Shown here: in pieces, positions 8,766 to 28,271 of the stretch
Layout of the letters: each line of letters opens with the position of its first letter
Position numbering within the stretch: position 1 is the stretch's first letter
Source: Desulfuromonadaceae bacterium
GTDB taxonomy: Bacteria; Desulfobacterota; Desulfuromonadia; Geobacterales; Pseudopelobacteraceae
NCBI GenBank assembly: GCA_049318985.1
Contig: JBMOEI010000031.1
Coordinates: 2,417-34,416 of the forward strand
Direction of reading: 5' to 3'
Length of the DNA stretch: 32,000 nucleotides
The notes under the pieces: model-generated
What the model was told of the DNA's origin: nothing
The model's input: only the letters and a program-made list of their open reading frames with translations
Database searches by the model: none
Program-made: the position numbers and the translations under genes

Positions 8766-8790
8766 TTCAAAACCCTCTCCATAATATATG

Positions 8791-8845: not shown

Positions 8846-8966
8846 TAGATATGGAGACGCTATAAGCCAGCGGAACGGAAAATTATCTGCGTTTATAGAT
8901 GAGAGTACGGAGTATGAGGATTGAGTCAACTTGGTGGCGTAATCTGAAAGTGCAGCCATAAATTCA

Positions 8967-9404
8967 TCAGTGTACTTCAACCTGCTTAGCGGTACACATC
9001 CGGGTAGATATTTCACAGGGATGATCAGGCTGATCACGCCACCATTGCTTGTCTACGACAGAAGAGCAACCCCCATCTTCCAATAGCCCCTTGCGCCCAC
9101 TCTGATCGCACACGAGCACAACAGCATGACCGTTAACCCCTTGCGCTTTTAAGAGATATCCCACAAATGGCTCTTTCAGTCGTGGATCATGGCTGGTTGA
9201 AAAATCTACCAACTCCATATCCTTCATTTCTGCCGGTGCTTCCTTGAACAGCACTTTCTCTTCCACTGCTGTAGTCAATTTAGTAAGGGCAGAAGCCAGT
9301 GAGTACATTTCTTCTTTATCCGCAACGTTGTAATGGGCGCACCCGGAGCTGAAGATCAGCAGGGAAAACAGTATCAGCCGCACACCGATGTTGAATTTTT
9401 TCAT
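8967..9404 (-). CDS. Lipoprotein (145 aa)
   Basis: ORF-track 8967..9461, trimmed to MKKFNIGVRLILFSLLIFSSGCAHY, a signal peptide plus lipobox (FSSGC). The start is 3 nt after the stop of the upstream PLC-like gene. Confidence 0.7.
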   Translation of the reverse strand: MKKFNIGVRLILFSLLIFSSGCAHYNVADKEEMYSLASALTKLTTAVEEKVLFKEAPAEMKDMELVDFSTSHDPRLKEPFVGYLLKAQGVNGHAVVLVCDQSGRKGLLEDGGCSSVVDKQWWRDQPDHPCEISTRMCTAKQVEVH

Positions 9405-9406
9405 TA

Positions 9407-10789: not shown

Positions 10790-11065
10790 TCACTTGTTAA
10801 TTGCATCCCTAAGCAGATTGCTCGGCTTGAACGTCAATATCCGCCTCGCTTCAATGGTGAGCGCCTCACCTGTCTGCGGATTACGACCACGGCGGTCAGC
10901 CTTCTGTTTAACGATAAAATTGCCAAAGCCGGATATTTTAAGATTCTCACCGGATTCGAGCGTGCTTTTCATAATGGCAAAAACTGCTTCTACCATCTCG
11001 GCTGATTCTTTGCGTGTCATGCCGATGCTTTCCTGAACCTTTTCAAATATGTCTGCTTTAGTCAT
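10790..11065 (-). CDS. HU/IHF-family DNA-bending protein (IHF-alpha-like)
   Basis: ISGFGNFIVKQKADRRGRNPQTGEALTIEARRILTFKPSNLL is the classic HU/IHF beta-arm signature (GFG-F...R-x-G-R-N-P-x-T-G). RBS AAGGAGGAAG. Confidence 0.9.
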   Translation of the reverse strand: MTKADIFEKVQESIGMTRKESAEMVEAVFAIMKSTLESGENLKISGFGNFIVKQKADRRGRNPQTGEALTIEARRILTFKPSNLLRDAINK

Positions 11066-11112
11066 GATTCCTGCTTCCTCCTTGAAAATTTATCATACTG
11101 AGAATGTACGCG

Positions 11113-11328
11113 TCATACTGTTCCAAACCGCTGCTTCAACTGCTCAATGGTATGATTCCATTTGTGTGTCTTCGGGCGGGTAACCGTATTCTGGTTGCCG
11201 AAAAATCCTACCTCTGAGACGGCCTCGTTTGTCGGCTTTGTGCAAATCCATTCGACTGGCACAAAATATTCGGACTTTTCTTCGTCGTCGTTGAATTGGC
11301 GATGATAATTGGACTGTGCGACATCCAA
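11113..11328 (-). CDS. Hypothetical small protein (71 aa), possibly a C-terminal remnant
   Basis: ORF-track entry directly downstream of hsdS. No convincing RBS seen and no recognised motif. Confidence 0.3.
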   Translation of the reverse strand: MDVAQSNYHRQFNDDEEKSEYFVPVEWICTKPTNEAVSEVGFFGNQNTVTRPKTHKWNHTIEQLKQRFGTV

Positions 11329-11353
11329 CAGAGATCGTTCGACTCCGTCAAAA

Positions 11354-12544
11354 TCAAATCAGGTCTCCACGAAATGCTTTATCCAGAATCGACGGCACCA
11401 TGGCATCCAGTTCGGTGGCAGTTTCGGTCTGGAGGCGTTTGAGGGAGTCAATCTTGGCTTGGAGGTTGTCCAGGTGGGTGACGATGTTGTGCTGTTCTTC
11501 AATTGACGGTAGCATAATGGGAAACTTTCTTATGGCTCCGATATTGAGATGAGGTGATGCTGAACCTTTAGAGAGCGGAACTATCTGATCTTGCTGAATA
11601 ATCGGCGAGAGCCATTGGTACAAAAGGAATTGCGGTAGAATTTTCCGGGAATCAGGGCGAACTTGCATAACTCTTTGCCCTAAGCTCATTTTATGACCTT
11701 CTTCAACAATGCCGGCTTTTCCGGTTCCTCCACCTTCTCGAACGATGATAATGTCTCCTGGTACAAGTTCTCCCCTCCGAGTTCGACGAAGGTACTCATC
11801 TTCACTTGTTCTCAAAGCTGTTTCGGGAAAAAGTTTGCCCCATCCTATATCCGGAGATCGGAGTGTTGGAATTCCCGAATCGGAATATATCGCGTTCGAG
11901 TGTAAACAATCGATTATGTCAGTGCAAAGCGATGCAAGCACTGCACTCCCATTATATTTCGACATAGAGAACAAGTTGCGGGACGTGCTGTGTAACAGCG
12001 CCTCCGTCTCCTCCACCGCATGCCGTCTGAGCCCCCGCGCCTCCTTAATCTTCGCCGTCAGCTCTTCAATCCGCGCAACAATGCACCGTTGTTCGGCCAG
12101 CGGTGGGAGGGATATTTCCATGGCAAGAAACTTCTCTTCTTTGAGGCGTACCCTGTTAGTTGTACCTTCACTGGCTGCCTTACAAAGTTCAACAAATCCT
12201 GATGTCTTGCTTAACCACTCTAGGAACTTCGGTGTAAGCCTTTCCTGATTCAAATCGAATGCCGGAAAATCATTACTGACAACCGCTCCATCAAGCATTT
12301 CAGGGACAAGACCAAAAGCACCGTTGCGGGCATCAATCCGCGAAAGTATGAACTGGCCTTGCCGGACAATGGCTCGCCGTGATGCCGTCATCTCTGTGCC
12401 AGAGACCTCACGGCGTAGCACAACACCCTTGCCCCAGAGTTTGATCGTCACTTCCCGATAAAAGGCATTTGGGTCAATAGAAACCAATTCCTCAGACTTC
12501 TTCAGCACCTCTCCAAGCGCCACCAGCGGCCACGCGCCACTCAT
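11354..12544 (-). CDS. hsdS: Type I restriction-modification specificity subunit HsdS
   Basis: Two target-recognition halves are separated by the conserved helical spacers LPPLAEQRCIVARIEELTAKIKEA and LPSIEEQHNIVTHLDNLQAKIDSL. The ATG overlaps the upstream stop (ATGA at 12541..12544). Confidence 0.9.
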   Translation of the reverse strand: MSGAWPLVALGEVLKKSEELVSIDPNAFYREVTIKLWGKGVVLRREVSGTEMTASRRAIVRQGQFILSRIDARNGAFGLVPEMLDGAVVSNDFPAFDLNQERLTPKFLEWLSKTSGFVELCKAASEGTTNRVRLKEEKFLAMEISLPPLAEQRCIVARIEELTAKIKEARGLRRHAVEETEALLHSTSRNLFSMSKYNGSAVLASLCTDIIDCLHSNAIYSDSGIPTLRSPDIGWGKLFPETALRTSEDEYLRRTRRGELVPGDIIIVREGGGTGKAGIVEEGHKMSLGQRVMQVRPDSRKILPQFLLYQWLSPIIQQDQIVPLSKGSASPHLNIGAIRKFPIMLPSIEEQHNIVTHLDNLQAKIDSLKRLQTETATELDAMVPSILDKAFRGDLI

Positions 12545-13380
12545 ACGCCCGTCATCCTGAGAAGTTCCGAGACGAAACCAACGACATCCGCCTGCATCTC
12601 CGCGTCCTCGGCCCCGGAGGCAAAAAGCGCCACCCGCATCGGTCCGAGTGCTCTTTCGTCAAGAAAATCCTCGCGAAGAATAGCGACAGCACGACGACCA
12701 GGGGCGGTTTCAATCAGGTGGCTAAAAAAAGCAGCGACGTCTTCCGTGCCGCTACCATAGTTTCTCGTCATGTAGTAAAGATCGTAGGCATCTTTGAATT
12801 TCCCGCGATTGCGGAACGCCAGCGCCTTCAGGATGACAAACGCACCTGGATTACACACGGGGATTTCACGCGATGCGGTTTCACCAAAAAGGGTCGTCCC
12901 GTCAAGCCTGACTCTAATCCGCTCACTAAATGCGATTTCAAGCCCCTCGATAATAAAAGCGGCCAGGCCCTTTTCGAGTGATTGTAATTTCCCTGGGACT
13001 GCCTCTTCATTGATCGGCGGAATAAGAAATTCTATTTTTGCTGACGGATTTCGCGTATGGGTCCAGCGCTGACGGACTTCATTCCCTTTATTACTGATGT
13101 CAGGGGTAAAACCCGAATCCCTCAAACGCTCCGCGATACCCTCGTACCGATGATCATCAAGAATTGCCAGATCAAGTCCAAGATCAAGATCCATCGTACC
13201 TACATGCGGTTCGGCTCCGATTGGGAGTGCTGTCGGAGGGATGAGGAGGCTGGGCACCAATCCTCCGACAACAACCAGATCATCCATATAATCGCCGAGT
13301 ATGGTCGCTGCCGTAAGGGTGGCGGCACGGATCAAGTCAGTCTGTTCGGGGGTATAGTCGGCGGCAGTGTGAAACGTCAT
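12541..13380 (-). CDS. AbiEii/AbiGii-family nucleotidyltransferase toxin-like protein (DUF1814-like)
   Basis: NTase-like VVVGGLVPSLL...HVGTMDLDLGLDL motif, size ~280 aa, paired with an upstream wHTH protein and overlapping it by 4 nt (13377..13380). Confidence 0.6.
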   Translation of the reverse strand: MTFHTAADYTPEQTDLIRAATLTAATILGDYMDDLVVVGGLVPSLLIPPTALPIGAEPHVGTMDLDLGLDLAILDDHRYEGIAERLRDSGFTPDISNKGNEVRQRWTHTRNPSAKIEFLIPPINEEAVPGKLQSLEKGLAAFIIEGLEIAFSERIRVRLDGTTLFGETASREIPVCNPGAFVILKALAFRNRGKFKDAYDLYYMTRNYGSGTEDVAAFFSHLIETAPGRRAVAILREDFLDERALGPMRVALFASGAEDAEMQADVVGFVSELLRMTGV

Positions 13381-14429
13381 GGGAACTCCAGATTTTTCCG
13401 CAACTCGGTAGCTGCTTCTTTAGCCCGTTCCGGGAGGGATTTCAGGTCAAGCCAGACCTGGATGCGATGAACACAAGGAATGTCGGCAACGGGTTGTATG
13501 CCGTAAAAGAGATCGGGGTCTTTCGGAATGATCAGCCAAACATTGGCTCCGGAGGTGTTTTCCCGGAAGCCGATCTGTTCCAGGATATGCTTGTCCGGCC
13601 ACTCTTTCAGATACATGGTAACAGTGCGAAACGCGGCAAACCTGGAATACAACCATGCAGCCCCCAGCCCGGTGGCGGCATGATCAACAGACAGACTTTT
13701 CAAGGTGCTGCTGATTTTCCCTTGAATCTCTTCCCCGGATCGTCCGGCCACATGGCCGCGCAGTATCTCATGCTTTGTGAAATCGTACCCTTGCTGCCAC
13801 GCATCCAGCATTACTTCTGACTTGGCGACAATGAGTTTCCCCTGATTGTCACGGGAGATAAGCTGCTGGGCTTCAAGTGATTTAACGATCCGGCTGACAA
13901 ATCCTTCCCCCAGACCTGTTTCGTCTGCCAGCTCCCGTTGCGTCCAGGCACGGTTTGTTTGATACAGCATGTGTCGGGCAATTCGCGAACTTTTCGGGGC
14001 AAAGGGATTTTCATTGCGCCCGGGGGAGATGAACTTGTTCTTTTCGCCACGGACGAAGAGACGGAGGCCGGGAGCGGTAATATCGGCATTGCCCGAGAGA
14101 TCCAGCCAGGAAACACCGGCCTCGGCGCACTTACCAATCCCGGTTTCTCCCATGAATGGTGTAACCAGCAGTCGAATATCGGAAGGTTTGGCGGGGTAGC
14201 GTATCAAATGCTCAATGCCGGCGGCAACAGAGCCAATCAGGGGTGATGACTTGTACTCAACTACGAACCGGAATCCACCTGCCTCCATAACAAGGTCTGG
14301 CCGGTATCTTTCGCTTTGCGGAGTACCTGTAAGAGGCTCGTAGTCAACCCTGTCGGCGCTAACACCGATGAGCTTCTCCAGCCGGTCTACCACCTGTTTC
14401 AACGCATTTTTCTCATGTTCAATCTTCAT
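13377..14429 (-). CDS. AbiEi-like antitoxin/transcriptional regulator with N-terminal PD-(D/E)xK-like module
   Basis: Central winged-HTH SRIARHMLYQTNRAWTQRELADETGLGEGFVSRIVKSLEAQQLI. N-terminal RPDLVMEAGGFRFVVEYKSS resembles a D...E-x-K nuclease-fold core. Genomic pairing with an AbiEii-like NTase. Confidence 0.5.
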   Translation of the reverse strand: MKIEHEKNALKQVVDRLEKLIGVSADRVDYEPLTGTPQSERYRPDLVMEAGGFRFVVEYKSSPLIGSVAAGIEHLIRYPAKPSDIRLLVTPFMGETGIGKCAEAGVSWLDLSGNADITAPGLRLFVRGEKNKFISPGRNENPFAPKSSRIARHMLYQTNRAWTQRELADETGLGEGFVSRIVKSLEAQQLISRDNQGKLIVAKSEVMLDAWQQGYDFTKHEILRGHVAGRSGEEIQGKISSTLKSLSVDHAATGLGAAWLYSRFAAFRTVTMYLKEWPDKHILEQIGFRENTSGANVWLIIPKDPDLFYGIQPVADIPCVHRIQVWLDLKSLPERAKEAATELRKNLEFP

Positions 14430-14430
14430 G

Positions 14431-14466
14431 CTTTACTTTTTACCACTACTTTACTTATTTGTAAAG
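14431..14466. promoter_or_regulatory. CTTTAC / CTTTAC / GTAAAG repeat set upstream of the AbiEi-like gene (candidate autoregulatory operator)
   Basis: CTTTAC at 14431..14436 and 14449..14454, with the inverted copy GTAAAG at 14461..14466, in the AT-rich 83-nt hsdM-abiEi gap. Confidence 0.3.
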
Positions 14467-14512
14467 GCGGTTATTTTAGTGAAGTGGCTGATCTTATTTT
14501 TGCATTTCCCTT

Positions 14513-16048
14513 TCAATCTACTACACCCTTGGCAAGTACCAGCCGGATCTCGCCCATGATCTCAAGTATTCGCTGCTCTTTCCTGACAATATCTTCTACC
14601 AGCCGCTCCGGCGGCAGATGTTCGAAGTCATCTTTGCCGGTGGGATTCTTGATGTCCAGGTTGTAGCCGTTCTCGATGATCCGCTCTACCGGCACCCGCC
14701 AGGCGTGCTCGTTCTCCTCCTTGTTGTTCCACCATGACAGGCAATCGGCAAATTCCTCGAACTGGACCGGCTGGGTCTTGGTGTAGTTCTTCCGCCCTTC
14801 CGGCAATGGCTGTTCATAGTACCAGACCTCTTTGGTCGGCCCGGAACGGTCGAAGAAAAGGAGGTTGGTGGGGATACCGGTATACGGGGCAAAAACGCCA
14901 TTGGGCAGACGCACTATGGTATGCAGGTTGAAATCTTTGATCAGTCGTTCCTTGATTCGCCCGCAGATGCCGTCGCCGAAGAGCATGCCATTGGGGACGA
15001 CCACTCCGGCTCGGCCAGGTTTGGGTTGGCGTTTGAGCTTGCGCATGATCATCTGGAGAAAGAGCAGCGTCGTCTCCGAGGTCTGCATCTCGGCGGGAAA
15101 GTTGTTGAGAATCCCTTTCTCTTCTTCACCACCAAATGGGGGATTAGTCAGGATGACATCCACTCGATCCCGGTCGCCAATCTCATTGAGCGGAAAGCGG
15201 AGGCTGTTATCCGGGTCGATTCTGGGGAATTCCAGCCCGTGCAGCAGCAGGTTCATCTGCACCAGCAGATAGGGGAGCGGCTTGGCTTCGCCGCCATAAA
15301 TGCTGCTTCCCTGGAGAATATTGCGCTCTTCAACGGTCGTGCACTGCTTCTCCAGGTGGCTGTAGGTCTCCACCAGAAAACCGCCAGTGCCGCAGGCCGG
15401 GTCAAGGATGGTTTCACCCAATTGGGGATTGAGGACATCGACCATGAAGCGGACAACCGGGCGAGGGGTATAGAATTCTCCCGCATCACCGGCTGCATCG
15501 CGCATCTCCTTGAGCATGGATTCGTAGAGGTGGCTCAGGGTGTGAATTTCGTCAGACGAAGTAAAGTGGATGCCGTTGACCTTGTTGATCACGTCCCGCA
15601 ACAGGTAGCCATTGATCATCCGGTTGATGGTGCCTTTGAAGACGGTGGCGATGACATCCCGCCGGTCGCCGCCGTTGATCCCCTGGAGGCCGCGCAGATA
15701 GGCGAACAGCCCTGCGCCCCTGGTTCCATCCGGACGGACCGCTTCATCGTTGTTGACGAAAGCTATCAATTCATCGCCGGTTATGCCGTCTTCCCGTGCG
15801 GCCCAGTCGCGCCAGCGATACGGTGCCTCAATTGCCGGTCGGAACTTCTCACCGGAAAGGATCGCTTCTTCCTCCCGAATTCGCTCCATGTCATCGAGGA
15901 ATTTGAGGAACATGATCCAAGTAAGTACGGGGAGCCGGTCGATGTCGCCGGAAAGCCCCTTGTCCTTGCGCATGATGTCGCGGGATGATTTTACGATAGA
16001 GCCAAGTTGTTGGGCGGTTGATAATGAGTTTATGGTTTTGCGTGACAT
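14513..16048 (-). CDS. hsdM: Type I restriction-modification N6-adenine DNA methyltransferase HsdM
   Basis: HsdM N-terminal domain (LPVLTWIMFLKFLDD), SAM motif I ILDPACGTGGFL, and catalytic motif IV VILTNPPFGG. Confidence 0.95.
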   Translation of the reverse strand: MSRKTINSLSTAQQLGSIVKSSRDIMRKDKGLSGDIDRLPVLTWIMFLKFLDDMERIREEEAILSGEKFRPAIEAPYRWRDWAAREDGITGDELIAFVNNDEAVRPDGTRGAGLFAYLRGLQGINGGDRRDVIATVFKGTINRMINGYLLRDVINKVNGIHFTSSDEIHTLSHLYESMLKEMRDAAGDAGEFYTPRPVVRFMVDVLNPQLGETILDPACGTGGFLVETYSHLEKQCTTVEERNILQGSSIYGGEAKPLPYLLVQMNLLLHGLEFPRIDPDNSLRFPLNEIGDRDRVDVILTNPPFGGEEEKGILNNFPAEMQTSETTLLFLQMIMRKLKRQPKPGRAGVVVPNGMLFGDGICGRIKERLIKDFNLHTIVRLPNGVFAPYTGIPTNLLFFDRSGPTKEVWYYEQPLPEGRKNYTKTQPVQFEEFADCLSWWNNKEENEHAWRVPVERIIENGYNLDIKNPTGKDDFEHLPPERLVEDIVRKEQRILEIMGEIRLVLAKGVVD

Positions 16049-16096
16049 TTATGGCTCCGAGGCGCAAATGGTGAATGAAAATTGCATGGATGTCGT

Positions 16097-17089
16097 TTAC
16101 TTTTTAGTCGCTAAATTGATAGACATAATAAAAGAGGTCACAGCTTCAGCGCTATTATCAGCAGTGGGGTCAGAATCTGGGACCAGAGTGCTTTCTACTA
16201 AAATCGAACCACCATGTAATTCAATAATTGAATTCGCAACTGCCAATCCAAGTCCTGTGCCTCCTGAGTAAGTTGTATAAAATGGTTGAAAAATCCGCCT
16301 GGAATAGATGTCGTCCTTTGGGATGTATTTGCCGATATTACTTACTTTTACAAATGCCGATGACCCAACCCGATACACATCTATTTCTATGGGATACTTC
16401 GAATTGCCAAATTGCTGGGCATTAATAATCATATTAAGAATGACTTGGCTAAGTTGGTGGGTATCACCAAATATCTCGCACTGACTCATGTGCTGATTTA
16501 ATTGGATCTCATAGCGGTTATTTGTATCATTCACCAAATTATAGGCCTCATTAACAATCTGCAAAAGATTAACTCGCGAAAAACCAACCGGTAATGCTGT
16601 GATGCTGTATATCTGCGGCATAATCGCTAAGATAAGCTTTTGTACTCCAGCCTCCAAATCTGGGAATAAGTCTACGCGATGTATCTCCGCTAACATCGGA
16701 TGTTGAGGTTGACAGTCATCAAGTCGCACAGGGAGAAGATATATTTTATCAGGAGGCATTGTTTCCATTACCTCAATGGCCTGGCGCAGTTCTTTCTGCA
16801 CTACACCTCGTTTATTAACTGCATGATTTGACATCAACGCTATGAACAAATCAGATTGTATAATTGCCTTCGTGATTTCCTGTTTCCAATTTTGCCCTGG
16901 TTGAAGAGATTCTTCATCAAACCATATATATACAAGCTTATTTAGCCTTTTGAGGACACGATAAAGCTCTCTTGCCGAGTCGATGTCTTCTCTAGCATAG
17001 CTAAGAAATATTTGTTTCCTTTCGGGTATCATCACGTGATCTGACAGACCATCTAACCTCGTGAGCATATCCTGTAAATTGTTTGCCAT
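16097..17089 (-). CDS. TIR domain fused to histidine-kinase-type HATPase_c (GHKL) domain, no DHp/H-box
   Basis: N-terminal half: KQIFLSYAREDIDSARELYRVLKRL...WFDEESLQPGQNW...DLFIALMS...VVQKELRQA is a TIR_2-type pattern with the conserved Glu (E100). C-terminal half: N-box VILNMIINAQQFG, F-box IFQPFYTT, G2-box GGTGLGLAVANSIIELHGGSILVES. No HisKA phospho-acceptor His region lies between them. Confidence 0.75.
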   Translation of the reverse strand: MANNLQDMLTRLDGLSDHVMIPERKQIFLSYAREDIDSARELYRVLKRLNKLVYIWFDEESLQPGQNWKQEITKAIIQSDLFIALMSNHAVNKRGVVQKELRQAIEVMETMPPDKIYLLPVRLDDCQPQHPMLAEIHRVDLFPDLEAGVQKLILAIMPQIYSITALPVGFSRVNLLQIVNEAYNLVNDTNNRYEIQLNQHMSQCEIFGDTHQLSQVILNMIINAQQFGNSKYPIEIDVYRVGSSAFVKVSNIGKYIPKDDIYSRRIFQPFYTTYSGGTGLGLAVANSIIELHGGSILVESTLVPDSDPTADNSAEAVTSFIMSINLATKK

Positions 17090-17158
17090 TTTTATAACCT
17101 TTCAGATTAACGGCATTATGGTTACTGGATTCCCGTTATAGACAACCTGTGTTGACAA

Positions 17159-18790
17159 TCATCGGTCGCCGCGCCAGTCGGGAGTGTGAAAGCCATCAAG
17201 GAAGCGTGAGCGAACCGCAACAAAGGAATCCTTTCCAACATTAGACCCACGTTGGGCCATGTCCTCAATTGCTTCCACGTCGTCAAGCTTGATTTCACAA
17301 AGCGTCTGCTGATTTACCCTCAGATGGCGAGCTGGACTCAAAAAACTGTCTGCTAGTTCGGTAGCCGCGTGCTCCTGTGCCGCAAAAAAAAGATCGGCGC
17401 TTGTCGGTGCCCATCCTACTTTTCCTTTGCCTAGGGACTCTGTGAAATCGGTTTCATTACACATCGTTCCGATGCTCAAGACATCAATTCGATCAAGCGG
17501 TATTTTGAGGTGACGAACCGCCTCAGCTATTGCAGGCAATACTGGATTGTTTGCCCAAATTCCGCCATCAAGATAACTCTCAACCGATATTGCATTGTCA
17601 ACTATTGCTTCATCAAAGTATGTTGGTGCGGCAGAAGATGCTAGAGCTGCATCTACGGCGGATATTGCCGCAAATGCAGTCCGGTCGCGACAGTGAGCAG
17701 TTACAATAGCCTCTGCTTCACCATGGTTTGCCCTCACAGTAGGGAGCACTAGCCTACAGAGAGAATCCTGCGTTAGTATGCGATCTCCAAACACCGATTG
17801 AAGCGTCTCTCGTAGAGTTTGAGATTCATGCTTGGATTTCAGCCAGTGGCGCAGTTTGCGGTTTTTGGGGAATATCTTAGGCCCTTGCGTTCGATAAAAG
17901 GAAAGCATTTCAGCTGGGGTTAGACCGAGGCCGAGGCCTATGGCGAGAATCGCACCTGTAGATGTACCCGCAACAAGATCGAAATGTTTTACTAATTGGT
18001 TCCCGCCACCACTCTTTATCATATCGTCCCACTTAGCGAGGACAGCAGCGGTAAAGGTGCCTCGTAGGCCGCCGCCATCAAGCGCCAGGATTCGAAATAG
18101 GCGCCCACTAGAGATACTCTCTCGTGCCAGTGGAAGTAACTTTAGCTGAGATATTATTGTGCCCACAAGCTCATCAACAACAGTGCACGTAGCAAATGCT
18201 CGATTCTGCTGTTCAGAAAGACCGTTGCGCAAACGACAAAACACAGTCTCGTCATCTCTTACGTAACCTTCAATGGCCCCACCAAACCCCGCTACTGCAA
18301 ACCCAGATTTTCCACGGGCCAAGGTTTCTTCCAATTCAGCCGGAACTCCAGCGCGAGGTTTGTTGATGTCATACCATTTCCCACCTACTGCGACGACAAC
18401 ATCACATCTTTCAGCCATCCATTGCCTCATGGGAACTAAGCTTTCATCAGGTCTGTTACAGATAGATGGAATGATCTGAACAGCAGCGTATTCACGTTGA
18501 TCTTCAATATTTGCAAGTTGTTCAGCTGTGGCAGAAAACTTCTGGGTACGAACAAAAGTAAGCGCATCCTTCCGACCGCCTGACTCAACAAACTGCTTAG
18601 CGGAATTTTCAAGCGGATCTTGGAGAGTTGGGTGGCTGCCGTGAATAATGGTACCTCCCTCCCTGAATACAGCTTGACTAAGCCTCTGAACAAATAGTTG
18701 AATCGCTTTTGCCTGTTCAATAGAAGCGTTATCGTGAATAGCCCCGGAAATATGGACTCTTATGCCAAGCAGCGGAAGACGAGTTGTCAT
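17159..18790 (-). CDS. SLOG/STALD-like (LOG-type Rossmann) domain fused to patatin-like phospholipase
   Basis: Residues ~8-215 (IRVHISGAI...REGGTIIHGSHPTLQDPL...CDVVVAVGGKW...AGVPAELEETLARGKSGFAVAGFGGA) fit the SLOG/LOG Rossmann pattern. Residues ~232-445 carry the full patatin set: oxyanion DGGGLRG (238-244), nucleophile GTSTG (Ser277), and catalytic YLDGG (Asp408). Confidence 0.75.
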   Translation of the reverse strand: MTTRLPLLGIRVHISGAIHDNASIEQAKAIQLFVQRLSQAVFREGGTIIHGSHPTLQDPLENSAKQFVESGGRKDALTFVRTQKFSATAEQLANIEDQREYAAVQIIPSICNRPDESLVPMRQWMAERCDVVVAVGGKWYDINKPRAGVPAELEETLARGKSGFAVAGFGGAIEGYVRDDETVFCRLRNGLSEQQNRAFATCTVVDELVGTIISQLKLLPLARESISSGRLFRILALDGGGLRGTFTAAVLAKWDDMIKSGGGNQLVKHFDLVAGTSTGAILAIGLGLGLTPAEMLSFYRTQGPKIFPKNRKLRHWLKSKHESQTLRETLQSVFGDRILTQDSLCRLVLPTVRANHGEAEAIVTAHCRDRTAFAAISAVDAALASSAAPTYFDEAIVDNAISVESYLDGGIWANNPVLPAIAEAVRHLKIPLDRIDVLSIGTMCNETDFTESLGKGKVGWAPTSADLFFAAQEHAATELADSFLSPARHLRVNQQTLCEIKLDDVEAIEDMAQRGSNVGKDSFVAVRSRFLDGFHTPDWRGDR

Positions 18791-18846
18791 TGCATCCTCT
18801 TTTCTTGTGGTTCAAACGTTGGGTTCGCATTCGTACTGTAGATATT

Positions 18847-19446
18847 TTACCAGCCCGCGAGCCCAGCAGCTGTCTCGATCCATCCGCCGATGTTCTGGCG
18901 TCCATTCTGTGCCGTAAAATCATAGCTCATACAGTGATTTGAAAGTTGTACGACATTGTTGTCACTTGGGGCGGTAAACCATAGATCGCTCTCCGGAATA
19001 GCGAGTGTGTAATCGTCGTATTTAATCCATTTGCCGCTCTTCCACTCGGCAAGGTAAATTCCCTTTTCAGTTCTATATACACCCATCTGCGCCAGTGGGT
19101 CAGCGCCTTTCACAGCGACTACTCCATCCTTGTTCTTTACACCATGTATATAGACTGTCAATAACCCGTTGCCCTTGATTAGGCTGCGGGCGATTTCGTA
19201 TCTGACCCAGCGCCGACTCCAAGTGTCAGTACCCGAGAGTACACAAGTCACAGAGGTATTTTTTACCCCATCTCGGAGGAAAGCCTTGAGAGAGTCATCA
19301 CTTTCTTTTTTGGAAGCTTCGAATACGCTACTATCGAAAAAACCAATGCTGGCCTGATCCTCTGCCTTGACTACCCAGCAATTGCGAACATTCCAAGCAC
19401 GCCAGACGTCGGGTACGTAGTGAAACGAAAAAAAAGTTCTTCTCAT
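18847..19446 (-). CDS. thsB: ThsB-type TIR-like protein (DUF1863/Thoeris ThsB family)
   Basis: MRRTFFSFHYVPDVWRAWNVRNCW...NTSVTCVLSGTDTWSRRWVRYEIARSLIKGN. The FFSFHY, VRN, NTSVTCVL and RRWVRYEI blocks match the ThsB hallmark blocks as I recall them from Bacillus cereus ThsB, including the catalytic Glu (here E84). RBS GGAG upstream. Confidence 0.8.
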   Translation of the reverse strand: MRRTFFSFHYVPDVWRAWNVRNCWVVKAEDQASIGFFDSSVFEASKKESDDSLKAFLRDGVKNTSVTCVLSGTDTWSRRWVRYEIARSLIKGNGLLTVYIHGVKNKDGVVAVKGADPLAQMGVYRTEKGIYLAEWKSGKWIKYDDYTLAIPESDLWFTAPSDNNVVQLSNHCMSYDFTAQNGRQNIGGWIETAAGLAGW

Positions 19447-19574
19447 TTTGTCTCCGTTATTTTCATGGGGGTATAACGTCTAAAGGGTTAGCTGTGGCGA
19501 AGCCAACTGCTTGAGGGTCTGCTGTGTAGCGTAGCGGAAACAGCAGTACCTAAGTGTTAGGCATTTCGGCAAGA

Positions 19575-20261
19575 TTATCGGGGCTCTTCACCTTCTATTC
19601 TTGCCTTTATTAATCCTGCAAATAGACTTGAAGAAGGCCAACGGAGTTCAAAACTATTTGCGGCTTCTTCAAGTGTTGTTAACAAGGATTCCGTATCATC
19701 ATAAAAAATTTCGACTGTAGTATATTTCCCATTTTCAAGAAGCTTTATACCGTAACTCGTCTCTGTATTAGCCGACTCAGTCATTCTTTTGATTGCACTT
19801 GATAATTGTGCCATATACAAATCGGCTCTTTTTTCCCCCGGCAAGTCAGCTGGTATCCATCCTTCTTTATCATCACCGTACTCGAAAGACACTCTTCTGA
19901 TTACATCATTGGCATCGTGCGGCAGAGGGTCGCACTCATAAGTGAGCTTATCATTTGTGTCTAAATTAATGAGGGTCGTAATCAATATGGGCACTTTGTG
20001 CCCTTGTTTTTCGGAGATATTTCTTGACAACAACATTTCTCTAGCAAATGGTAACAATTTTAACTTATCTTGAAACTTTCCATATTCTCTCTCATATCCT
20101 TCTTTGTGCGCGTATAAGCTCTGCATCGCAAAGGTTGCACTTCTGGTCGCCGACAGTAGCGCGGAAAAATTAAAACAAAATTCCTCACTCGCAAGTTTTA
20201 GACCGCGTAGTTCATTCAAAAAATACCTTGCCTCTTTTATTTTGTATGATGGGTACATCAC
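19575..20261 (-). CDS. Hypothetical protein (228 aa), AT-rich, first gene of the insert between hsdR and hsdM
   Basis: ORF-track entry MMYPSYKIKEARYFLNELRGL... with RBS CAGGAGAAA upstream. I recognise no motif. Confidence 0.5.
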   Translation of the reverse strand: MMYPSYKIKEARYFLNELRGLKLASEEFCFNFSALLSATRSATFAMQSLYAHKEGYEREYGKFQDKLKLLPFAREMLLSRNISEKQGHKVPILITTLINLDTNDKLTYECDPLPHDANDVIRRVSFEYGDDKEGWIPADLPGEKRADLYMAQLSSAIKRMTESANTETSYGIKLLENGKYTTVEIFYDDTESLLTTLEEAANSFELRWPSSSLFAGLIKARIEGEEPR

Positions 20262-20293
20262 TTTTTCTCCTGTGTTTGCCTAACTCATTGCTG

Positions 20294-20325
20294 ACCGTTT
20301 CACGCGCACATGCGCGTGAAACGGT
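20294..20325. promoter_or_regulatory. 32-bp near-perfect palindrome ACCGTTTCACGCGCA-CA-TGCGCGTGAAACGGT
   Basis: 15-bp perfect arms read directly from the sequence, located 33-64 nt upstream of the 228-aa gene start and ~250 nt downstream of the hsdR stop. The outer half-sites GTTTCAC/GTGAAAC equal the two halves of a canonical parS. Confidence 0.5.
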
Positions 20326-20577
20326 GATCTTCCCAGGTTTTTTTGTCTGCGCACAATGAACTACCCCGCAGCAAGCTACGAGGTATCACGACGGTAATTT
20401 ATTTTTCAACGAAGCGAGCTTCGAGGAATTTACCCGAAGAGATTAAAACGACACATCAGTTGATTAAGTTTTCAGTAAAACGGTCACCTCAAAACACATT
20501 TCGCCAACATCACACCTCTTGATATACGAATCTAATTCGCGCCAGGCGAGATTGATCGTGACATCCGTATTCCTGCA

Positions 20578-22953
20578 TTAAAACCCCGCATAGAGCAGCG
20601 TCTGTAGTTCATTCACCGCTTCCCGCAGATTTTCCGCTCCACCAAAATACCCGGCAATCTCAATCACATTCCCACGCCCAGATATTGGCGGCACTTTCAA
20701 GATGTCCGGTACCACAAATTGTGCCGTACCATGTTGGGCGTATTTCTCCAGCAGTTCTTCAAGTATGGCCCTGGCCTCGGGGCCGTAGTGATCGAAGAAA
20801 TCCTTCCGGTCATGCTTAAGGCGTTCAGCCCGCTCGCGGCGAGTTCGTAACGGCGCATTGAAGGCCAGGTGACAGAGCAGATCAAAGTGGTCAGCTTCTG
20901 GTTGCCCAACGGAGTCTGCCAGCTCATTAAAGTTGATACCACGCTCCTCAAGCTGGCGGATAACTTCGGCCCGTTCCTTTGGATTGGCCCACTGTTCTCG
21001 CATCCGAATAGCACCGGTGAACAGAGTACGAACCTTGTCAGCGGCATAGTCGCTGTATTTGACGACACGGAGCTGCTTGCCGTCTGGATCCAGTTCATAA
21101 ACCAGATGGGCGGCAATCGCCACCTGTCCGCCATCGACATAGTACTTGCGGGGTTCTTTTGTGACGTCATCAATGACAACCCCTGCCGGGCCGTAGTCAT
21201 CCTGAACGCCGCCATCTTCCACAACGGGAGCTTCCTCAATAATGGTCGTTTCGTAGGTGGCGCCACTCGTATCAATCTTCTCTTCGCTGACCAGAGCCGG
21301 ATCCCCGTCGAAATCACTATCGGCAAAGAGCCTTGTGGCACTGCCGGTATAATCGAGGATGCTGAACCAGAGCTTGCCGTAATCGTCCCTGACACGGGTG
21401 CCACGGCCAATAATCTGTTTGAACTCCGACATGGAGCCAACCACGCGGGCCAGGACGATATTTTTACAGGTAGGGGCATCGACGCCGGTGGTCAGCATCT
21501 GTGAGGTGGTAAGGATGGCTGGGGTCTCGGTCTCCAGTTCCTGAAACCTGCCGAGATGCCCACGACCTATATCGCCCTCATTCGAAGTCACCCGGCAGAC
21601 GTAATCCGGGTACTGGCTTACCAGATCCTGGTTAAGGTTGGTGAGTGCCCGTCGCATCTCGTCCGCATGATCCTGATCCACGCAAAATACGATGGTCTTG
21701 GCAAAACGGTCAGTCTTTCTCAGAAAGTCATTCAGGTGACAGGCAATAGCCTCGGTACGGGCCTTTAGAGCGACAACCCGCTCAAAATCCTTGGTCTGGT
21801 ACTCCTCGTCCGGTATCTCCCGGCCATAGCGATCCAGCTCTCCCTTGCTGGGACGCCAACCTGCAGCATCAAAGTCAGTGATAATGCGGTGGACCCGGTA
21901 CGGCGCCAGGAAACCGTCGTCTATCCCCTGCCGCAAGCTGTACTGGTAGATGGGGTTGCCAAAGTAGAGGTAGGTATCCCGGTTGTCTTCCCTGAGCGGG
22001 GTAGCGGTCATCCCCAACTGAAACGCCGGAGAGAAATACTCCAGGATCTCCCGCCAGTTGCTGTTGTCGCGGGCGCTTCCCCGGTGGCATTCATCAACTA
22101 TGATCAGGTCGAAGAAGTCCGGCCGGTACTCCTTATAGAGCCCCGGTCGCCGTTCGTCCTTGGCCAGCGACTGGTAGATGGCGAAATACATCTCACGGCT
22201 TTTGTTGGCCTCGCCATTCTCGATCTTCCAGCGGGCATCGCCGAAGGGAGCAAAGATCTTATCCTTGGGGTCATCGACCAGAATATTACGATCAGCAAGG
22301 TACAGAATTTTGGGGCGCCGATGCTCGCCGGTTGCATTCCAGCGGGCGCTCCAGAGTTTCCAACAAATCTGGAAGGCGACTACGGTTTTGCCGGTGCCGG
22401 TGGCCATGGTCAGCAGGATTCGTTTATTGTCCTGCAAAACCGACTGCACAACCCGGTTGATGGCGATTTCCTGATAATAGCGAGGACTCTTGCCGCTGTG
22501 GTGGTAATAAGGTGAAAGAATGCGTTGCGCGGATTCGGGGGAGAATGCCTGAGAGCTTTGCAGTCGCTGCCAAAGTTCCTCTGGTGGCGGGAACTCCGTC
22601 AATACTCGCTCCTGGCCGGTCATATAATCAAACTCGATGATTTCTATGCCGTTAGTGGCATAGGCAAACTTGATACCCAGAATCTCAGCGTACTCTTTAG
22701 CCTGCTGTATACCATCCCCGGCTGACAGGTAATCTGGTTTGGCCTCTACAACGGCTATGAGATAATCACGGGTATAGCGAAGCAGGTAGTCGGCCCGTTT
22801 CTGGGGACGACGCCTCACCTTGTTCCCAGCAAGAACAATACGGCCATCGGTAAAGGTAATTTGCTCGTTGATACGGTGGGGCTCGTTGTCCCAACCCGCC
22901 TCAACCAGCTTCGGCAGCACGTATTTTCGGCAGGTATCTGCTTCGTTGCTCAT
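20578..22953 (-). CDS. hsdR: Type I restriction enzyme endonuclease/translocase subunit HsdR
   Basis: N-terminal HsdR nuclease region (MSNEADTCRKYVLPKLVEAGW, ADYLL...VVEAK), Walker A LTMATGTGKT, DEAH-box IIVDECHRGS, motif III GMTATP, motif VI QIIGRGTR. Confidence 0.95.
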   Translation of the reverse strand: MSNEADTCRKYVLPKLVEAGWDNEPHRINEQITFTDGRIVLAGNKVRRRPQKRADYLLRYTRDYLIAVVEAKPDYLSAGDGIQQAKEYAEILGIKFAYATNGIEIIEFDYMTGQERVLTEFPPPEELWQRLQSSQAFSPESAQRILSPYYHHSGKSPRYYQEIAINRVVQSVLQDNKRILLTMATGTGKTVVAFQICWKLWSARWNATGEHRRPKILYLADRNILVDDPKDKIFAPFGDARWKIENGEANKSREMYFAIYQSLAKDERRPGLYKEYRPDFFDLIIVDECHRGSARDNSNWREILEYFSPAFQLGMTATPLREDNRDTYLYFGNPIYQYSLRQGIDDGFLAPYRVHRIITDFDAAGWRPSKGELDRYGREIPDEEYQTKDFERVVALKARTEAIACHLNDFLRKTDRFAKTIVFCVDQDHADEMRRALTNLNQDLVSQYPDYVCRVTSNEGDIGRGHLGRFQELETETPAILTTSQMLTTGVDAPTCKNIVLARVVGSMSEFKQIIGRGTRVRDDYGKLWFSILDYTGSATRLFADSDFDGDPALVSEEKIDTSGATYETTIIEEAPVVEDGGVQDDYGPAGVVIDDVTKEPRKYYVDGGQVAIAAHLVYELDPDGKQLRVVKYSDYAADKVRTLFTGAIRMREQWANPKERAEVIRQLEERGINFNELADSVGQPEADHFDLLCHLAFNAPLRTRRERAERLKHDRKDFFDHYGPEARAILEELLEKYAQHGTAQFVVPDILKVPPISGRGNVIEIAGYFGGAENLREAVNELQTLLYAGF

Positions 22954-22961
22954 AGATTACC

Positions 22962-23009
22962 CGATAAAGAAAAAGCCGTTTGTCAGCACTTGAGCAGACA
23001 ATGCGGCTT
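22962..23009 (-). terminator. Terminator-like hairpin plus U-tract abutting the hsdR start codon (insulator or attenuator)
   Basis: Minus-strand reading: AAGCCG-CA-TTGTC-[12-nt loop]-GACAA-A-CGGCTT followed by TTTTTCTTTAT, then CGGGTAATCT-ATG(hsdR). Confidence 0.45.
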
Positions 23010-23084
23010 CAGTTGGAACAATATGTCCTAAAGGGCACAGAGCCCATCTCTTTACCCTCCATAAATGCATGAAATTACGACATG

Positions 23085-23113
23085 TTAATACCTCTTTTCA
23101 CCCTCAAAGTCAA
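23085..23113 (-). promoter_or_regulatory. Candidate sigma70-type promoter for hsdR
   Basis: Minus strand: TTGACT (23113..23108), a 17-nt spacer, then TATTAA (23090..23085). This would give a ~125-nt leader containing the hairpin above. Confidence 0.4.
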
Positions 23114-23293
23114 TTTGATATGGCACCTGTACATTCCTACCGACAAAGAACGCTATTAGAGAACCCTGTCCTATCAGAACAGAGTGCTGCAACATGCTGT
23201 AATTTTTGTATTTACAGTTGACATTTGATATTAAGCTGGCCAAACTGACGTTGAAAAACTGACTATTTTGACTGTCGAGAAAGGAGGGAGGAC

Positions 23294-23608
23294 ATGATAA
23301 AAAAAATTGCAGCAATCTTCATTGCGGTTGCAGGAACTGTTCTCCCATGCCTACTTGCGGGAGCGGTGGTTGGGCTTATGTTTATATCGAGTTTCTGGAT
23401 ATGGGCTCTCGGGTTGACGACTATTTCGTTCCCCTGGATGCTCATGAACCGGGTGCATACCCGATTTTACCATGGGTACCTTAACGGAAAAACTTTATTT
23501 GAGAACTTGAAATACGCCTACACAAGTACTGAATATTATCCAACAACATCTCTCTTCGGTGCTTCATGGTGGAATTGGTACTGGGGATTTTTTAGACGAC
23601 ATTTCTGA
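23294..23608 (+). CDS. Small membrane protein (104 aa, two predicted TM helices, Trp/Tyr-rich tail)
   Basis: ORF-track entry with strong RBS AAAGGAGGGAGG. Hydrophobic stretches: IAAIFIAVAGTVLPCLLAGAVVGLMFI and FWIWALGLTTISFPWML. Confidence 0.55.
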   Translation: MIKKIAAIFIAVAGTVLPCLLAGAVVGLMFISSFWIWALGLTTISFPWMLMNRVHTRFYHGYLNGKTLFENLKYAYTSTEYYPTTSLFGASWWNWYWGFFRRHF

Positions 23609-23624
23609 TGACAGAAGTGATAGC

Positions 23625-23942
23625 TCATGAAGGTGCATAGGAATATTCCCATGCCCCTTTTATTTTGAGGAGTTCATCGCGACTTATTTCAACCCCGCCG
23701 ACAAATGGTGCAACGATGGCATACGGAGATGATTGGTAAAAATATACATTCGTACCATCTGCCCGTTCTAAATGCTCAAGGATCGCAACCGGAAGATTGA
23801 TCACACAGCTTCCTATCCGCAAATCAGCCCCATGCTCTTGAACATATAGTGAAATTGACGTGTCATGGTTGTCCGGCAAAGAAAATGTATCAGTTGCAAT
23901 GACTATTATTCCATCTGATACCAAGAGAATCTTATCCAACAC
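23625..23942 (-). CDS. Hypothetical protein (105 aa) immediately downstream of traG
   Basis: GTG start at 23942 with GAGGAGG upstream, 3 nt after the traG stop. No recognised motif. Confidence 0.45.
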   Translation of the reverse strand: MLDKILLVSDGIIVIATDTFSLPDNHDTSISLYVQEHGADLRIGSCVINLPVAILEHLERADGTNVYFYQSSPYAIVAPFVGGVEISRDELLKIKGAWEYSYAPS

Positions 23943-23945
23943 GAA

Positions 23946-26900
23946 TTACCTCCTCGATCCTTTGTATGGTTGCGGTCCACCGCCTTTCGGCAGCAGAGAA
24001 TTCTTGCTTTGATGTTGAAGGATTCTCCCCGTCCTCTGCAAATCTCTTTCAACACGAGTTTCAGCCGTCCTGGCAACTTGTTCAGTCATTCGAGACTCAG
24101 CTTCACGTTTAGCGGCATTCTTTTCCATTGAAGAAGTCAAAGGCCTGGCGACTGTTGCCGCGTCACCAATCAATCCAGAGGTTTCGTGCAGAGCCCCTCT
24201 ACCAACAGCTATCGTTGTAGCAGCAGTTCCCGCATTAATAGACCGACCTTCGACAAAATCGCTACTCGCTGCACTACCGGCAAGATCCTGTAATGATCTG
24301 ACCGATGTACCAACTGTTTGCCTGTTTGAATAATCTGCCTTAACCCCACCATCAGCACGAATACTCCCGGTAATTCCACCACCTGACCTGGTACTGACAA
24401 CAGCCGCCCCCTGCTGTGACGACTGAACAAACTGGTCCTCGGTAATCTCCGACCGCTGTCCGGCAATGAGATTCCCGCTCTTGTCCATCTTCCCTTGGAC
24501 TTGAGAGTAGTGCAGGTTGCCATCCTTGTCCTTGGCATACATAAGGACATTTCCGTCGAGTCCGTTGGAGAACGATCCACCGACTACCTCCATTTTGCCG
24601 GTTTTATCGTTCTTGGCATAATACCAGTCACCATTGACCATCATCTGCTTGCCGCCAGCCTGGATCATATAACTTCCGGACTTCCGTGACACATTCAGTG
24701 ACTGGTTCTCGTAGCCAGTCTTGATGAAATCACCAACCGTCTTGCGCAGCCCCTTGTCAGTAGTCGACACGTTTCGATCCAGACGCTCGATATCTGTCCC
24801 GGCCTTGCTCTGACCGAGATCAAACTTCTGCACCCGGCCACCCTGATCAACGGCAAACGACGCGAGATTGCCGTTCCGGTCGTAATCAGCCCTGTAGTCG
24901 AAGGCCTGGCCGGACAGCTTGGCGACATGGGCAGCAGCACTCTGGAATCCGGCAGAACGAAGCTGCTTCTGCAGTTCGAGTGCCTGTCCTTTGTCTCCTT
25001 TGGCAACGGTACCGGAATCAGACGAATTGACGATCCCGCCATCCATACCGACATTGACCGCACTCTTGCCGTCAACTGTCGTGAAGTTGATGTTCTGCCC
25101 CTCCATCGCCTTCTGCATCTCGGCAAAGCCCCGTTCGGTCAGGTGACCGTCCTGGTACATCTCCGGATCGTTTTTGAGTTGCGGAGCAATCCGTCCAACC
25201 AACTGATCCGCTGCAGCATGAACAAGCTGGTTGCGGGCAATCCGTCCTGAGACATCATTGCTGGTTAGCTGTTGGTAGTTGCCGTAACCGCCCCCAGCAT
25301 AGATTCCCTGGATCTTGCCTCCGGTTTCCGTTGCCACGACATGACCAGCCTCAGTACCGGCGGCAACAGGACCACCCATTTGATTAGAAAGCCCGGTAAC
25401 CTCTGATGCATGTTTGCTCTGCTGAAACTGGGCATTCATCTGCATAAGTTGTCCGGATGAGATTCCGTAGTTATCGGCAATCTTGTTCACCGCATCGGTA
25501 TTGGCAAAATCCCCCAGGGCTGTAACTTCCGAGCGCATGGCATTAAACTCCCGCCAGTTCCCATTGAACCCGAGAGACCTGGCAGCGGCATATGCTCCCA
25601 TTTCACCCTGCAATTGCCCGACACTCTTGTCCATATTGGCAGTCAGGAAATCTGAATAGTTTTCACCGGAGCCAAAGACATTTGCCAAGGCCCGGTCGTT
25701 GGCAACTCCCATATTCGCGAAGGCCTGAGTGTCGCCGCCGTAACTGCCTGAAACTACATCTTTGGTAGCAGCCGACCTGTCGAGTCCCAGTCGGCCATCA
25801 AATGATTTCAACTCGTAGGCTGATGACAGACCACCTTCACGCATTGCCCTGCCGCTGCCGCCGAAACCGATTGATCTGCCAATCTCGCTATCAGCGGATA
25901 TCCGGCTCGAAGCCTCCATGCCGAAGTCCCGGATCATATCGCTCGTCGCCGTGGTTTTACCAGACATGCTGACCAGCGACTGTGCCTGCCTGGCTTGGAA
26001 GCTATGCTCATTGCTCCAGGCCTGGGTCGGCATAGCAGTAACATTACGCTGCATGGCTGACGCTCTACCGGCGGGATCTTCAACCTCATGTGTTGCCCGG
26101 TTGCCTGCGGACTGAACCTGGCTGACCATCCCTCCGGCCATCATCGCCATGGCATGACCGCCGAACTTGATCAACATACCGGTAATAACCGTCGCCAGCA
26201 TCATTCCACTCATCCGAAGCGTACCAAACATCCCAAGTATCTTTACCGTCTGGTCAGGAAAGAAGTAGAGGGCATCCATACCCAGCTTGTTCTGCCGGAC
26301 TATCTCATAAGCCCGATTAGCATAGTCCACGGCAAACTGGTGAACAATGGCATCGGTGACACCCCATGCAGTCAACCAAATGAAGAAGCCGGCGATGATC
26401 CCGACCGCCTTTCCGATCAGCGGTGTGGGAATGAAGAGCGCCAGGAATGGCAGCAATCCAACAGCGATGGCAGTAAGTGCCGCTTTCAGGATCGGCAACC
26501 ATTCGTTGGCCGACTTCATGGCACCGGAAGCGCTGAGCAGGAATTGGTAATTGGTGGCACCGGCAGCATTACCACTACGGAAGATCTCCTCCAGTCGCTG
26601 GGAGACGTAGGCCTGCTTCAGAAAATCGTCAATGCTTGCCGCTCCCAGACCGATACCGGTATTAACATTGTTCAGTACCGTCTTGCACTGGATCATGGCT
26701 GCAGCATCGGTTACGTCATAGCCAAGATTGGCACAGACCGACTGGATGTTCTTTTCAAGATTGGCCGGGGTGAGCGCCGCTTTGATGCTGGTCCAGGAGT
26801 CGGTACAGGTAAGCGTCTGCCCCTGTGGATTTGCTACATCGTAATAAACCGTCCAGATGGCCGGATTGACCGCCTTGTCCAGTGAACCGACAAAATTGGT

Positions 26901-28263: not shown

Positions 28264-28271
28264 GACGCCCC

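Follow-up and report, generated by a model that had tools for sequence, protein, structure and literature searches.

Does a group of three genes set within a type I restriction-modification operon encode a Thoeris-like defence system whose output is lipid hydrolysis? The question is raised by a locus in a stretch of 32,000 nucleotides (nt) from a Desulfuromonadaceae bacterium (GenBank assembly GCA_049318985.1, contig JBMOEI010000031.1, positions 2,417 to 34,416), referred to below as the window. Three genes lie there on one strand between hsdR and hsdM, encoding a ThsB-type TIR protein, a protein that joins a SLOG domain to a patatin lipase, and a TIR domain fused to a HATPase_c domain. We favour, at a probability of roughly 60%, a Thoeris-like abortive-infection system with a SLOG-patatin effector, carried as cargo in a conjugative element, within its type I restriction-modification operon. 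Positions are window coordinates, L-numbers designate the related loci that we compared, and protein lengths are in amino acids (aa). The features of the locus are:

18847-19446, minus strand: thsB, a ThsB-type TIR protein of 199 aa, predicted infection sensor and signal synthase
17159-18790, minus strand: SLOG-patatin effector gene, 543 aa
18116-18790, minus strand: SLOG domain of the effector (aa 1-225), predicted receptor for a TIR-made ADP-ribose derivative
17159-18106 (stop codon included), minus strand: patatin or CapV-like phospholipase half of the effector, aa 229-543
16097-17089, minus strand: TIR_2 and HATPase_c gene, 330 aa

A preliminary description, made without database searches, had placed three open reading frames here on the minus strand, separated by gaps of 56, 69 and 48 nt (the last to hsdM). 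These values proved exact, and the motifs that it quoted were all present in the translations (FFSFHY, VRN, NTSVTCVL and RRWVRYEI in ThsB; DGGGLRG, GTSTG and DGG in the patatin half).

A ThsB-type TIR and a SLOG-patatin effector

The assignment of the first protein to ThsB was upheld by matches to Pfam ThsB_TIR (E=6e-25) and to the PADLOC ThsB model PDLC00431 (E=1.6e-53). Its catalytic glutamate, E84 in WVRYEI, aligned with the BcThsB motif. The TIR domain shares 51% identity with BcThsB of type I Thoeris and 71% with the TIR of Pseudomonas veronii R4, the partner of a 'SLOG Patatin' protein in the work of Yirmiya et al. (bioRxiv 10.64898/2025.12.03.692087). A further PADLOC label, PDC-M50, arose from a ThsB match to PDC-M50B (E=2e-50). 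Since no window protein matched any other PDC-M50 model, this label does not describe the locus and was discarded.

The preliminary description had also read a SLOG domain in the N-terminal half of the effector. By Pfam alone this call is weak, as the window sequence remained below the gathering threshold (LD_cluster2 E=3.7e-4, STALD E=2.4e-3). A precomputed PF18163 match is present in nearly all of the 120 best homologues, which are 66-93% identical over their full length. We searched aa 1-228 against 1.8 billion cluster representatives and scanned 72 relatives of this N-terminal domain; LD_cluster2 was found in 71 and STALD in 39, and 37 carried a patatin domain as well. Structure prediction confirmed the call. 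The AlphaFold2 model of aa 1-228 had a predicted local distance difference test score (pLDDT) of 92.7, and its best PDB match by Foldseek was the SLOG domain of BcThsA with 3' cyclic ADP-ribose (3'cADPR; entry 7uxs, E=1e-7, template modelling (TM) scores 0.60/0.68). Other ThsA entries, LOG enzymes and TRPM SLOG domains followed. As had been claimed, the domain (aa 1-225) lies N-terminal to the effector half.

In ThsA, six residues (G289, S290, R371, K388, G399 and E403) make contact with 3'cADPR at its diphosphate and distal ribose. A comparison of the family profile with ThsA chains (best E=4.7e-4) placed G16, R122, G148 and E152 of the effector opposite BcThsA G289, R371, G399 and E403, which means that four of the six contacts are conserved. 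Across the family alignment R122 never varies and G148 and E152 hardly do; among full-length homologues G16 is invariant. Fold and residues together point to the N-terminal domain as a putative receptor, of Thoeris type, for a TIR-made signal derived from ADP-ribose.

That the second half of the effector is a complete patatin lipase was borne out by a Pfam Patatin match (E=1.4e-26) and by its catalytic residues. The motifs comprise the oxyanion GGGxRG at 239-244, the nucleophile S277 in GTSTG and D408 in DGG, and none of the residues G239-G241, R243, G244, S277 and D408-G410 varies among 47 homologues. The NCBIfam model CBASS_lipase matched aa 232-504 with 207 bits (cut-off 200), and the PADLOC model for phospholipase effectors of the cyclic-oligonucleotide-based antiphage signalling system (CBASS) matched with E=4e-77, covering model positions 5-317 of 331. 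In the model of the full-length effector (pLDDT 80, predicted TM score 0.83), Foldseek matched AbCapV (8zr9, E=4.5e-13) and CapE over nearly the whole length and the ThsA SLOG over the N-terminal half.

These matches bear on another explanation, under which the 543-aa protein is a CBASS effector switched on by a cyclic dinucleotide and the TIR genes are unrelated to it; the Prokaryotic Genome Annotation Pipeline (PGAP) names homologues accordingly. The CBASS_lipase score above the cut-off, the CapV and CapE structure matches and the RefSeq name on plasmids speak for it. The C-terminal 315 aa indeed form a full-length lipase of the CapV kind, sharing its catalytic dyad and its fold, and the solved relatives, CapV and CapE, are activated by ligand-induced filament formation. 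However, the conserved neighbours are TIR genes rather than cyclases, and an extra SLOG domain precedes the lipase. No cyclase family match was obtained among the scanned window proteins, the genes from hsdR to hsdM being all accounted for, and no cyclase is annotated in the matching backbone of the related element L101 or in three inspected plasmid loci (L105-L107). Published cyclic GMP-AMP (cGAMP) contacts of AbCapV are F147, K149, D159, E207 and R279. In the phmmer alignment, F147, K149 and D159 are replaced by A361, V363 and F373, E207 is kept as E423, and R279 falls outside. Three of the four mappable contacts are therefore lost, and ligand sensing has plausibly moved to the SLOG domain. 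On the missing cyclase and the non-conserved contacts we rejected the CBASS reading of the lipase, which we regard as scarcely credible.

On the plasmids L105-L107 (NZ_CP034659.1, NZ_CP013986.1 and NZ_CP062806.1), the SLOG-patatin protein carries the RefSeq name 'CBASS cGAMP-activated phospholipase' and is encoded among two to five TIR genes, and the annotation of the loci inspected shows no cyclase. Because the CBASS_lipase model matches the C-terminal half, the public name is probably a misannotation of a systematic kind. It finds no backing in the genomic context and should be corrected. Scans with PADLOC v2 and NCBIfam returned no model specific to SLOG-patatin proteins; strong effector matches came only from CBASS lipase models, which aligned to the patatin half.

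Conserved TIR neighbours and the second-TIR slot

Co-conservation was assessed in 14 genome loci, in those of 80 metagenome loci that carried SLOG, and in three plasmid loci with annotation. Where the flanks could be read, the gene immediately upstream of SLOG-patatin is in most cases ThsB (L001-L004, L007, L008, L010, L011, L019-L023, L025, L030 and L034). Of 29 distinct SLOG-patatin loci, about 24 have one or more TIR-family genes as neighbours. The usual number of TIR genes around SLOG-patatin is two to five. The plasmid of E. coli ATCC 98082 (NZ_CP034659.1) has five annotated TIR genes around one SLOG-patatin gene, and a Klebsiella variicola plasmid has four. The two different TIR types noted at the window locus (ThsB_TIR and TIR_2) were both recovered. 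They had been taken as a peculiarity of the locus, which they are not: several TIR kinds are the norm for the SLOG-patatin family and for type III Thoeris.

The position just downstream of SLOG-patatin is usually occupied by a second TIR-superfamily gene, the type of which varies. In L003-L008, L012, L027 and L030 it encodes a protein of 380-396 aa with TIR_2; the two of these that were scanned matched the PADLOC ThsB model PDLC00434 over the full length (E=3e-74 and 2e-72). Another TIR_2 protein is found in L022, L023 and L028 (the L028 match being weak and below threshold), ThsB in L033 and a convergent PfkB-TIR_2 fusion in L009. Even among copies of the pair that are about 92% identical, the occupant differs: TIR-HATPase_c in the window, a TIR with an FGE-sulfatase domain in L020 and a HET-domain protein in L001 and L021, the HET domain being remotely homologous to TIR. 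The downstream position thus resembles a slot that is conserved while its occupants, drawn from the TIR superfamily, can be exchanged.

Expected co-occurrence of all three genes was confirmed in part. ThsB and SLOG-patatin are strongly co-conserved and TIR-HATPase_c is not: phmmer found a homologue of the latter in none of the 14 genome loci, and the three-gene arrangement of the window is repeated only in the identical contig L019. As its homologues occur in unrelated contexts, the data do not support TIR-HATPase_c as a conserved third member; it is the slot that is conserved, not the gene.

The proposed fusion of a TIR to a GHKL ATPase was confirmed for this gene. TIR_2 matched aa 27-153 (nt 16631-17011; E=1.1e-24), including an invariant E100, and HATPase_c, an ATP-binding domain of the histidine-kinase type, matched aa 208-301 (nt 16187-16468; E=1.9e-15). 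Like histidine kinases, the protein keeps the N box, F box and G2 box. Unlike them, it has a TIR fused to the ATPase domain and lacks a phospho-acceptor histidine as well as a DHp/HisKA domain, since the NCBIfam histidine-kinase alignments cover only the C-terminal catalytic domain. No Pfam or NCBIfam match to HisKA was obtained, and the protein does not qualify as a two-component histidine kinase. Its G1 box reads SNIGKY instead of DxGxG, and the adenine-contacting Asp is Asn in seven of eight family members. With the N, F and G2 boxes retained, this substitution suggests that the domain may bind a ligand other than ATP, or may serve as sensor or scaffold only. The family is rare: a search of a 5.8-billion-protein collection yielded eight proteins that have both domains, the one in the window among them. 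A literature search for TIR combined with a histidine-kinase-like ATPase found no paper describing such an architecture.

Several related loci showed features of their own. In L016 (2382-4376), a TIR-HATPase_c homologue lies 58 bp downstream of a same-strand Exo_endo_phos (EEP) gene, near a CAP12-PCTIR_TIR gene; the EEP gene may be a different partner for the family. L011 (2430-8153, Nitrospira) contains a separate SLOG-only gene of 270 aa, several ThsB and TIR_2-like genes and a full SLOG-patatin gene, and may represent two effectors sharing one TIR array. Damaged SLOG-patatin copies were seen in L010 (truncated at ~400 aa), L014 (frameshifted) and L030 (interrupted by ~1.2 kb). In L032 (1-3759), a giant LRR-Roc-COR protein is encoded upstream of a diverged SLOG-patatin (44% identity), and its C-terminal end gave a sub-threshold TIR_2 match (E=1.3e-5, 26 bits, cut-off 28). 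If this match is real, an NLR/ROCO-like sensor TIR would be paired with a SLOG-patatin effector.

Relation to known Thoeris systems and proposed mechanism

The core of this configuration has been catalogued. The TIR neighbourhood survey of Yirmiya et al. (December 2025) lists 29 putative Thoeris types, of which types V-XI were validated, and gives 'Patatin' as the putative effector for a ThsB-type TIR cluster (its Table S1). The combination had been put forward as undescribed, which does not hold for its core, as ThsB with 'SLOG Patatin' is already listed there as a putative Thoeris type. The two share the same two-gene core, with 71% TIR identity and an effector carrying SLOG and patatin. They differ in that the survey cloned only pairs of TIR and effector, assigned no type number and does not have TIR_2-HATPase_c in its Table. 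The core is thus catalogued, unnamed and unvalidated, and what is new here is the rare TIR-HATPase_c in the second-TIR slot of a predicted Thoeris configuration.

Among established types, type I Thoeris is alike in its ThsB (51% identity to BcThsB) and in its SLOG domain, the ThsA SLOG being the closest to that of the effector, with phosphate and ribose contacts kept. In type I, however, ThsA has a C-terminal SLOG domain and depletes NAD+ through SIR2, whereas the window effector has an N-terminal SLOG and a patatin lipase; no SIR2 match was found in it with Pfam, PADLOC or NCBIfam, which places it outside type I. Type III Thoeris (van den Berg et al. 2024), as summarized by Yirmiya et al., comprises four TIR proteins and a SLOG effector. 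On that summary it shares with the window ThsB-like and TIR_2-like TIRs alongside one SLOG-bearing effector. Unlike type III, the window effector carries a lipase domain and is not an orthologue of ThcA/ThsD (NCBIfam Thoeris_type3_ThcA, 20.7 bits against a cut-off of 110). A literature search for ThcA gave no result. Three general hallmarks of Thoeris are present, as predicted from sequences and models: a TIR with a catalytic glutamate, a SLOG-bearing effector, and genes that are adjacent and co-conserved.

The domains, the fold and the ligand-contact residues fit the logic first proposed for the locus, in which a TIR makes a signal, SLOG senses it and a lipase provides the output. Upon phage infection, ThsB would use E84 to convert NAD+ to an ADP-ribose-derived signal. 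Because ThsB and SLOG resemble type I Thoeris, the TIR of which makes 3'cADPR (Yirmiya et al.), this molecule is the leading candidate. The signal would bind the SLOG pocket of the effector at G16, R122, G148 and E152 and drive the 543-aa protein into higher-order oligomers, as occurs in ThsA with 3'cADPR and in CapV and CapE with cyclic dinucleotides; the solved ThsA, CapV and CapE structures that were matched are all ligand-bound filaments. Assembly would open the CapV-like patatin site (S277/D408), and hydrolysis of membrane phospholipids would cause the cell to die or arrest before phage release. TIR_2-HATPase_c would most likely be an alternative sensor TIR beside ThsB, which would let the system respond to more kinds of trigger.

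For the core, leading from a TIR signal through SLOG to the lipase, a Thoeris-like signalling system is fairly probable; its biochemical steps and defence phenotype are what we infer. A functional link of TIR-HATPase_c to ThsB and SLOG-patatin is much less certain, at about even odds.

Several observations count against this reading. In the sensor, the residue corresponding to ThsA S290 is Ala, and neither K388 nor the adenine-stacking L326 and Q359 could be mapped confidently onto the effector. A promoter and terminator scan found fewer promoter-like sites than in shuffled sequence and none in the gaps, and does not settle co-transcription. Moreover, Yirmiya et al. (Table S2) cloned two 'SLOG Patatin' pairs of TIR and effector, from P. 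veronii R4 and from one metagenome scaffold, which provided no defence in E. coli MG1655. These negative results temper our confidence in the core, although no more than 15 of its 30 cloned operons gave protection.

The remaining points concern the TIR-HATPase_c gene, which blastn and base composition separate from the ThsB and SLOG-patatin pair at one boundary:

17124/17125: junction of the ThsB and SLOG-patatin module with the TIR-HATPase_c module, defined by blastn homology blocks and a GC step

Window positions 17125-19455, holding ThsB and SLOG-patatin, are ~92% identical at the nucleotide level to L001, L021 and L020 (91.8% over 17125-19447 in L020), and these copies carry downstream genes other than that of the window. 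Positions 16098-17124, holding TIR-HATPase_c, are 95.6% identical to L018, where the 404 bp upstream of the gene are not SLOG-patatin. Across the junction the GC fraction steps between 0.49 and 0.40. TIR-HATPase_c is therefore a separately mobile module, joined at this point, and the view of the three genes as one cassette has to be given up, because the pair (L001, L020 and L021) and TIR-HATPase_c (L018) occur apart. The three homologues with visible context (L015-L017, 34-50% identity) have no ThsB or SLOG-patatin neighbours, and related TIR_2 fusions in the wider TIR_2 clade are standalone, without SLOG effectors. By PADLOC, the TIR of TIR-HATPase_c matched TIR-APAZ (E=5.5e-13) and SAVED-TIR (E=1.7e-8) better than ThsB models (E=1e-5), which brings it closer to TIRs of NADase effectors than to ThsB.

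Together with homology blocks that meet at the junction and differ in GC by 9 points, these data are what would be expected if the locus held two unrelated neighbour modules: the ThsB and SLOG-patatin pair, and a self-contained abortive-infection protein in which HATPase_c senses and TIR depletes NAD+, with no signal to SLOG-patatin. We consider this somewhat unlikely. Near-identical copies of the pair, each with a different TIR-superfamily gene downstream, would be hard to obtain by chance even in defence islands. Furthermore, the slot holds a recognised ThsB family (PDLC00434) in most other loci, and on plasmids a single SLOG-patatin gene is as a rule surrounded by an array of TIR genes.

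A bolder extension of the Thoeris-like reading is that SLOG-patatin systems are obligately multi-TIR, with plug-in sensor TIRs in the slot (TIR-HATPase_c, TIR-FGE-sulfatase, HET or ThsB of the PDLC00434 type) that would respond to different phage cues and feed one lipase. We regard this extension as rather unlikely. If true, it would explain the failure of the published two-gene constructs, and TIR-HATPase_c would be a new class of nucleotide-gated TIR sensor, built on a histidine-kinase-type ATP-binding domain with Asp replaced by Asn.

Another explanation is that the locus has a role other than phage defence, or is inactive here. The TIR and SLOG-patatin pair could act against plasmids or in addiction of the mobile element, or could depend on host factors that the test strains lack. 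In favour of this, neither of the two homologous systems protected against phage, family members are often found on conjugative plasmids and elements, and the copies in L010, L014 and L030 are disrupted. This explanation is nevertheless improbable, as full-length identity of 66-93% across distant phyla with invariant catalytic residues, and a position among restriction-modification, AbiE and Lamassu-like genes, argue against it. Heterologous failure is also common, as the 15 of 30 operons that defended in Yirmiya et al. illustrate.

Cargo site, mobile element and implications

The genes around the Thoeris-like locus belong to one type I restriction-modification operon:

20578-22953, minus strand: hsdR, 791 aa, context gene of the type I restriction-modification operon
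19575-20261, minus strand: gene for a 228-aa protein with weak Phage_lambda_Ea47 similarity, context outside the system
19504: upstream edge of the inserted cargo, at the end of homology to the conjugative element L101
14513-16048, minus strand: hsdM, 511 aa, context gene of the same operon
11354-12544: hsdS, same operon

Defence genes nested as cargo split the operon (11354-22953), in which the order is hsdR, the Ea47-like gene, ThsB and SLOG-patatin, TIR-HATPase_c, hsdM, an AbiEi-like/AbiEii pair nested between hsdM and hsdS, and hsdS. The identity of hsdM was taken from N6_Mtase and HsdM_N in the identical locus L019, and that of hsdR from the L101 homologue with ResIII, DEAD, SWI2_SNF2 and EcoEI_R_C. 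The three genes are more AT-rich than the hsd flanks, as had been noticed, with GC fractions of 0.40 (TIR-HATPase_c), 0.49 (SLOG-patatin) and 0.48 (ThsB) against 0.56 in hsdM and 0.55 in hsdR.

A related conjugative element, L101 (metagenome-assembled genome contig JAQTZV010000034.1, assigned to Desulfuromonadaceae), shares a backbone with TraU, TrbC and TraG_N. Window positions 19504-30455 match this backbone at 89-94% nucleotide identity. Homology ends at 19504 and other cargo follows, which identifies the site after hsdR and the 228-aa gene as a hotspot of cargo swapping. In L101, the cargo after hsdR and a 227-aa gene (10843-19334) is wholly different from window positions 16097-19503 and encodes two unknown proteins and DUF8370/8371, MC3 and LmuB_C proteins. 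This swap and the AT-richness sustain the earlier suggestion of a mobile insertion. A 146-bp stretch over the 3' end of hsdR (window 20568-20713) recurs in L101 at 19466-19611, after the cargo, with 88% identity, and may be a scar left by recombination at the edge of the cargo.

The gene at 19575-20261 had been considered a possible fourth member of the cassette. We rejected it, because it travels with hsdR in L101, as a 95% identical 227-aa copy in a locus that lacks ThsB and SLOG-patatin, and is found standalone in L103. The protein has only seven homologues and matched nothing in Pfam, PADLOC or NCBIfam scans; a weak precomputed PF26900 match was the only similarity.

Elsewhere in the window (2627-10336), genes for ParB, a CHC2 zinc-finger protein, RadC, a HipA kinase toxin (7285-8592) and a zinc-dependent phospholipase C (9407-10336) look like accessory genes of the conjugative element. 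Megablast of the 8.6-kb region found no near-identical DNA in complete E. coli genomes or PLSDB plasmids. Judging by the genes, the locus lies in a defence island carried by a mobile element.

If the proposed mechanism is true, the locus belongs to a Thoeris branch with membrane-lipid hydrolysis as its output, in which a ThsA-type sensor is combined with a CBASS-type CapV killer. A SLOG-patatin fusion that works as proposed would show how defence systems that work by signalling swap their sensor and effector modules. As several TIR genes are normal at SLOG-patatin loci, whole loci would be worth testing in preference to pairs of TIR and effector.

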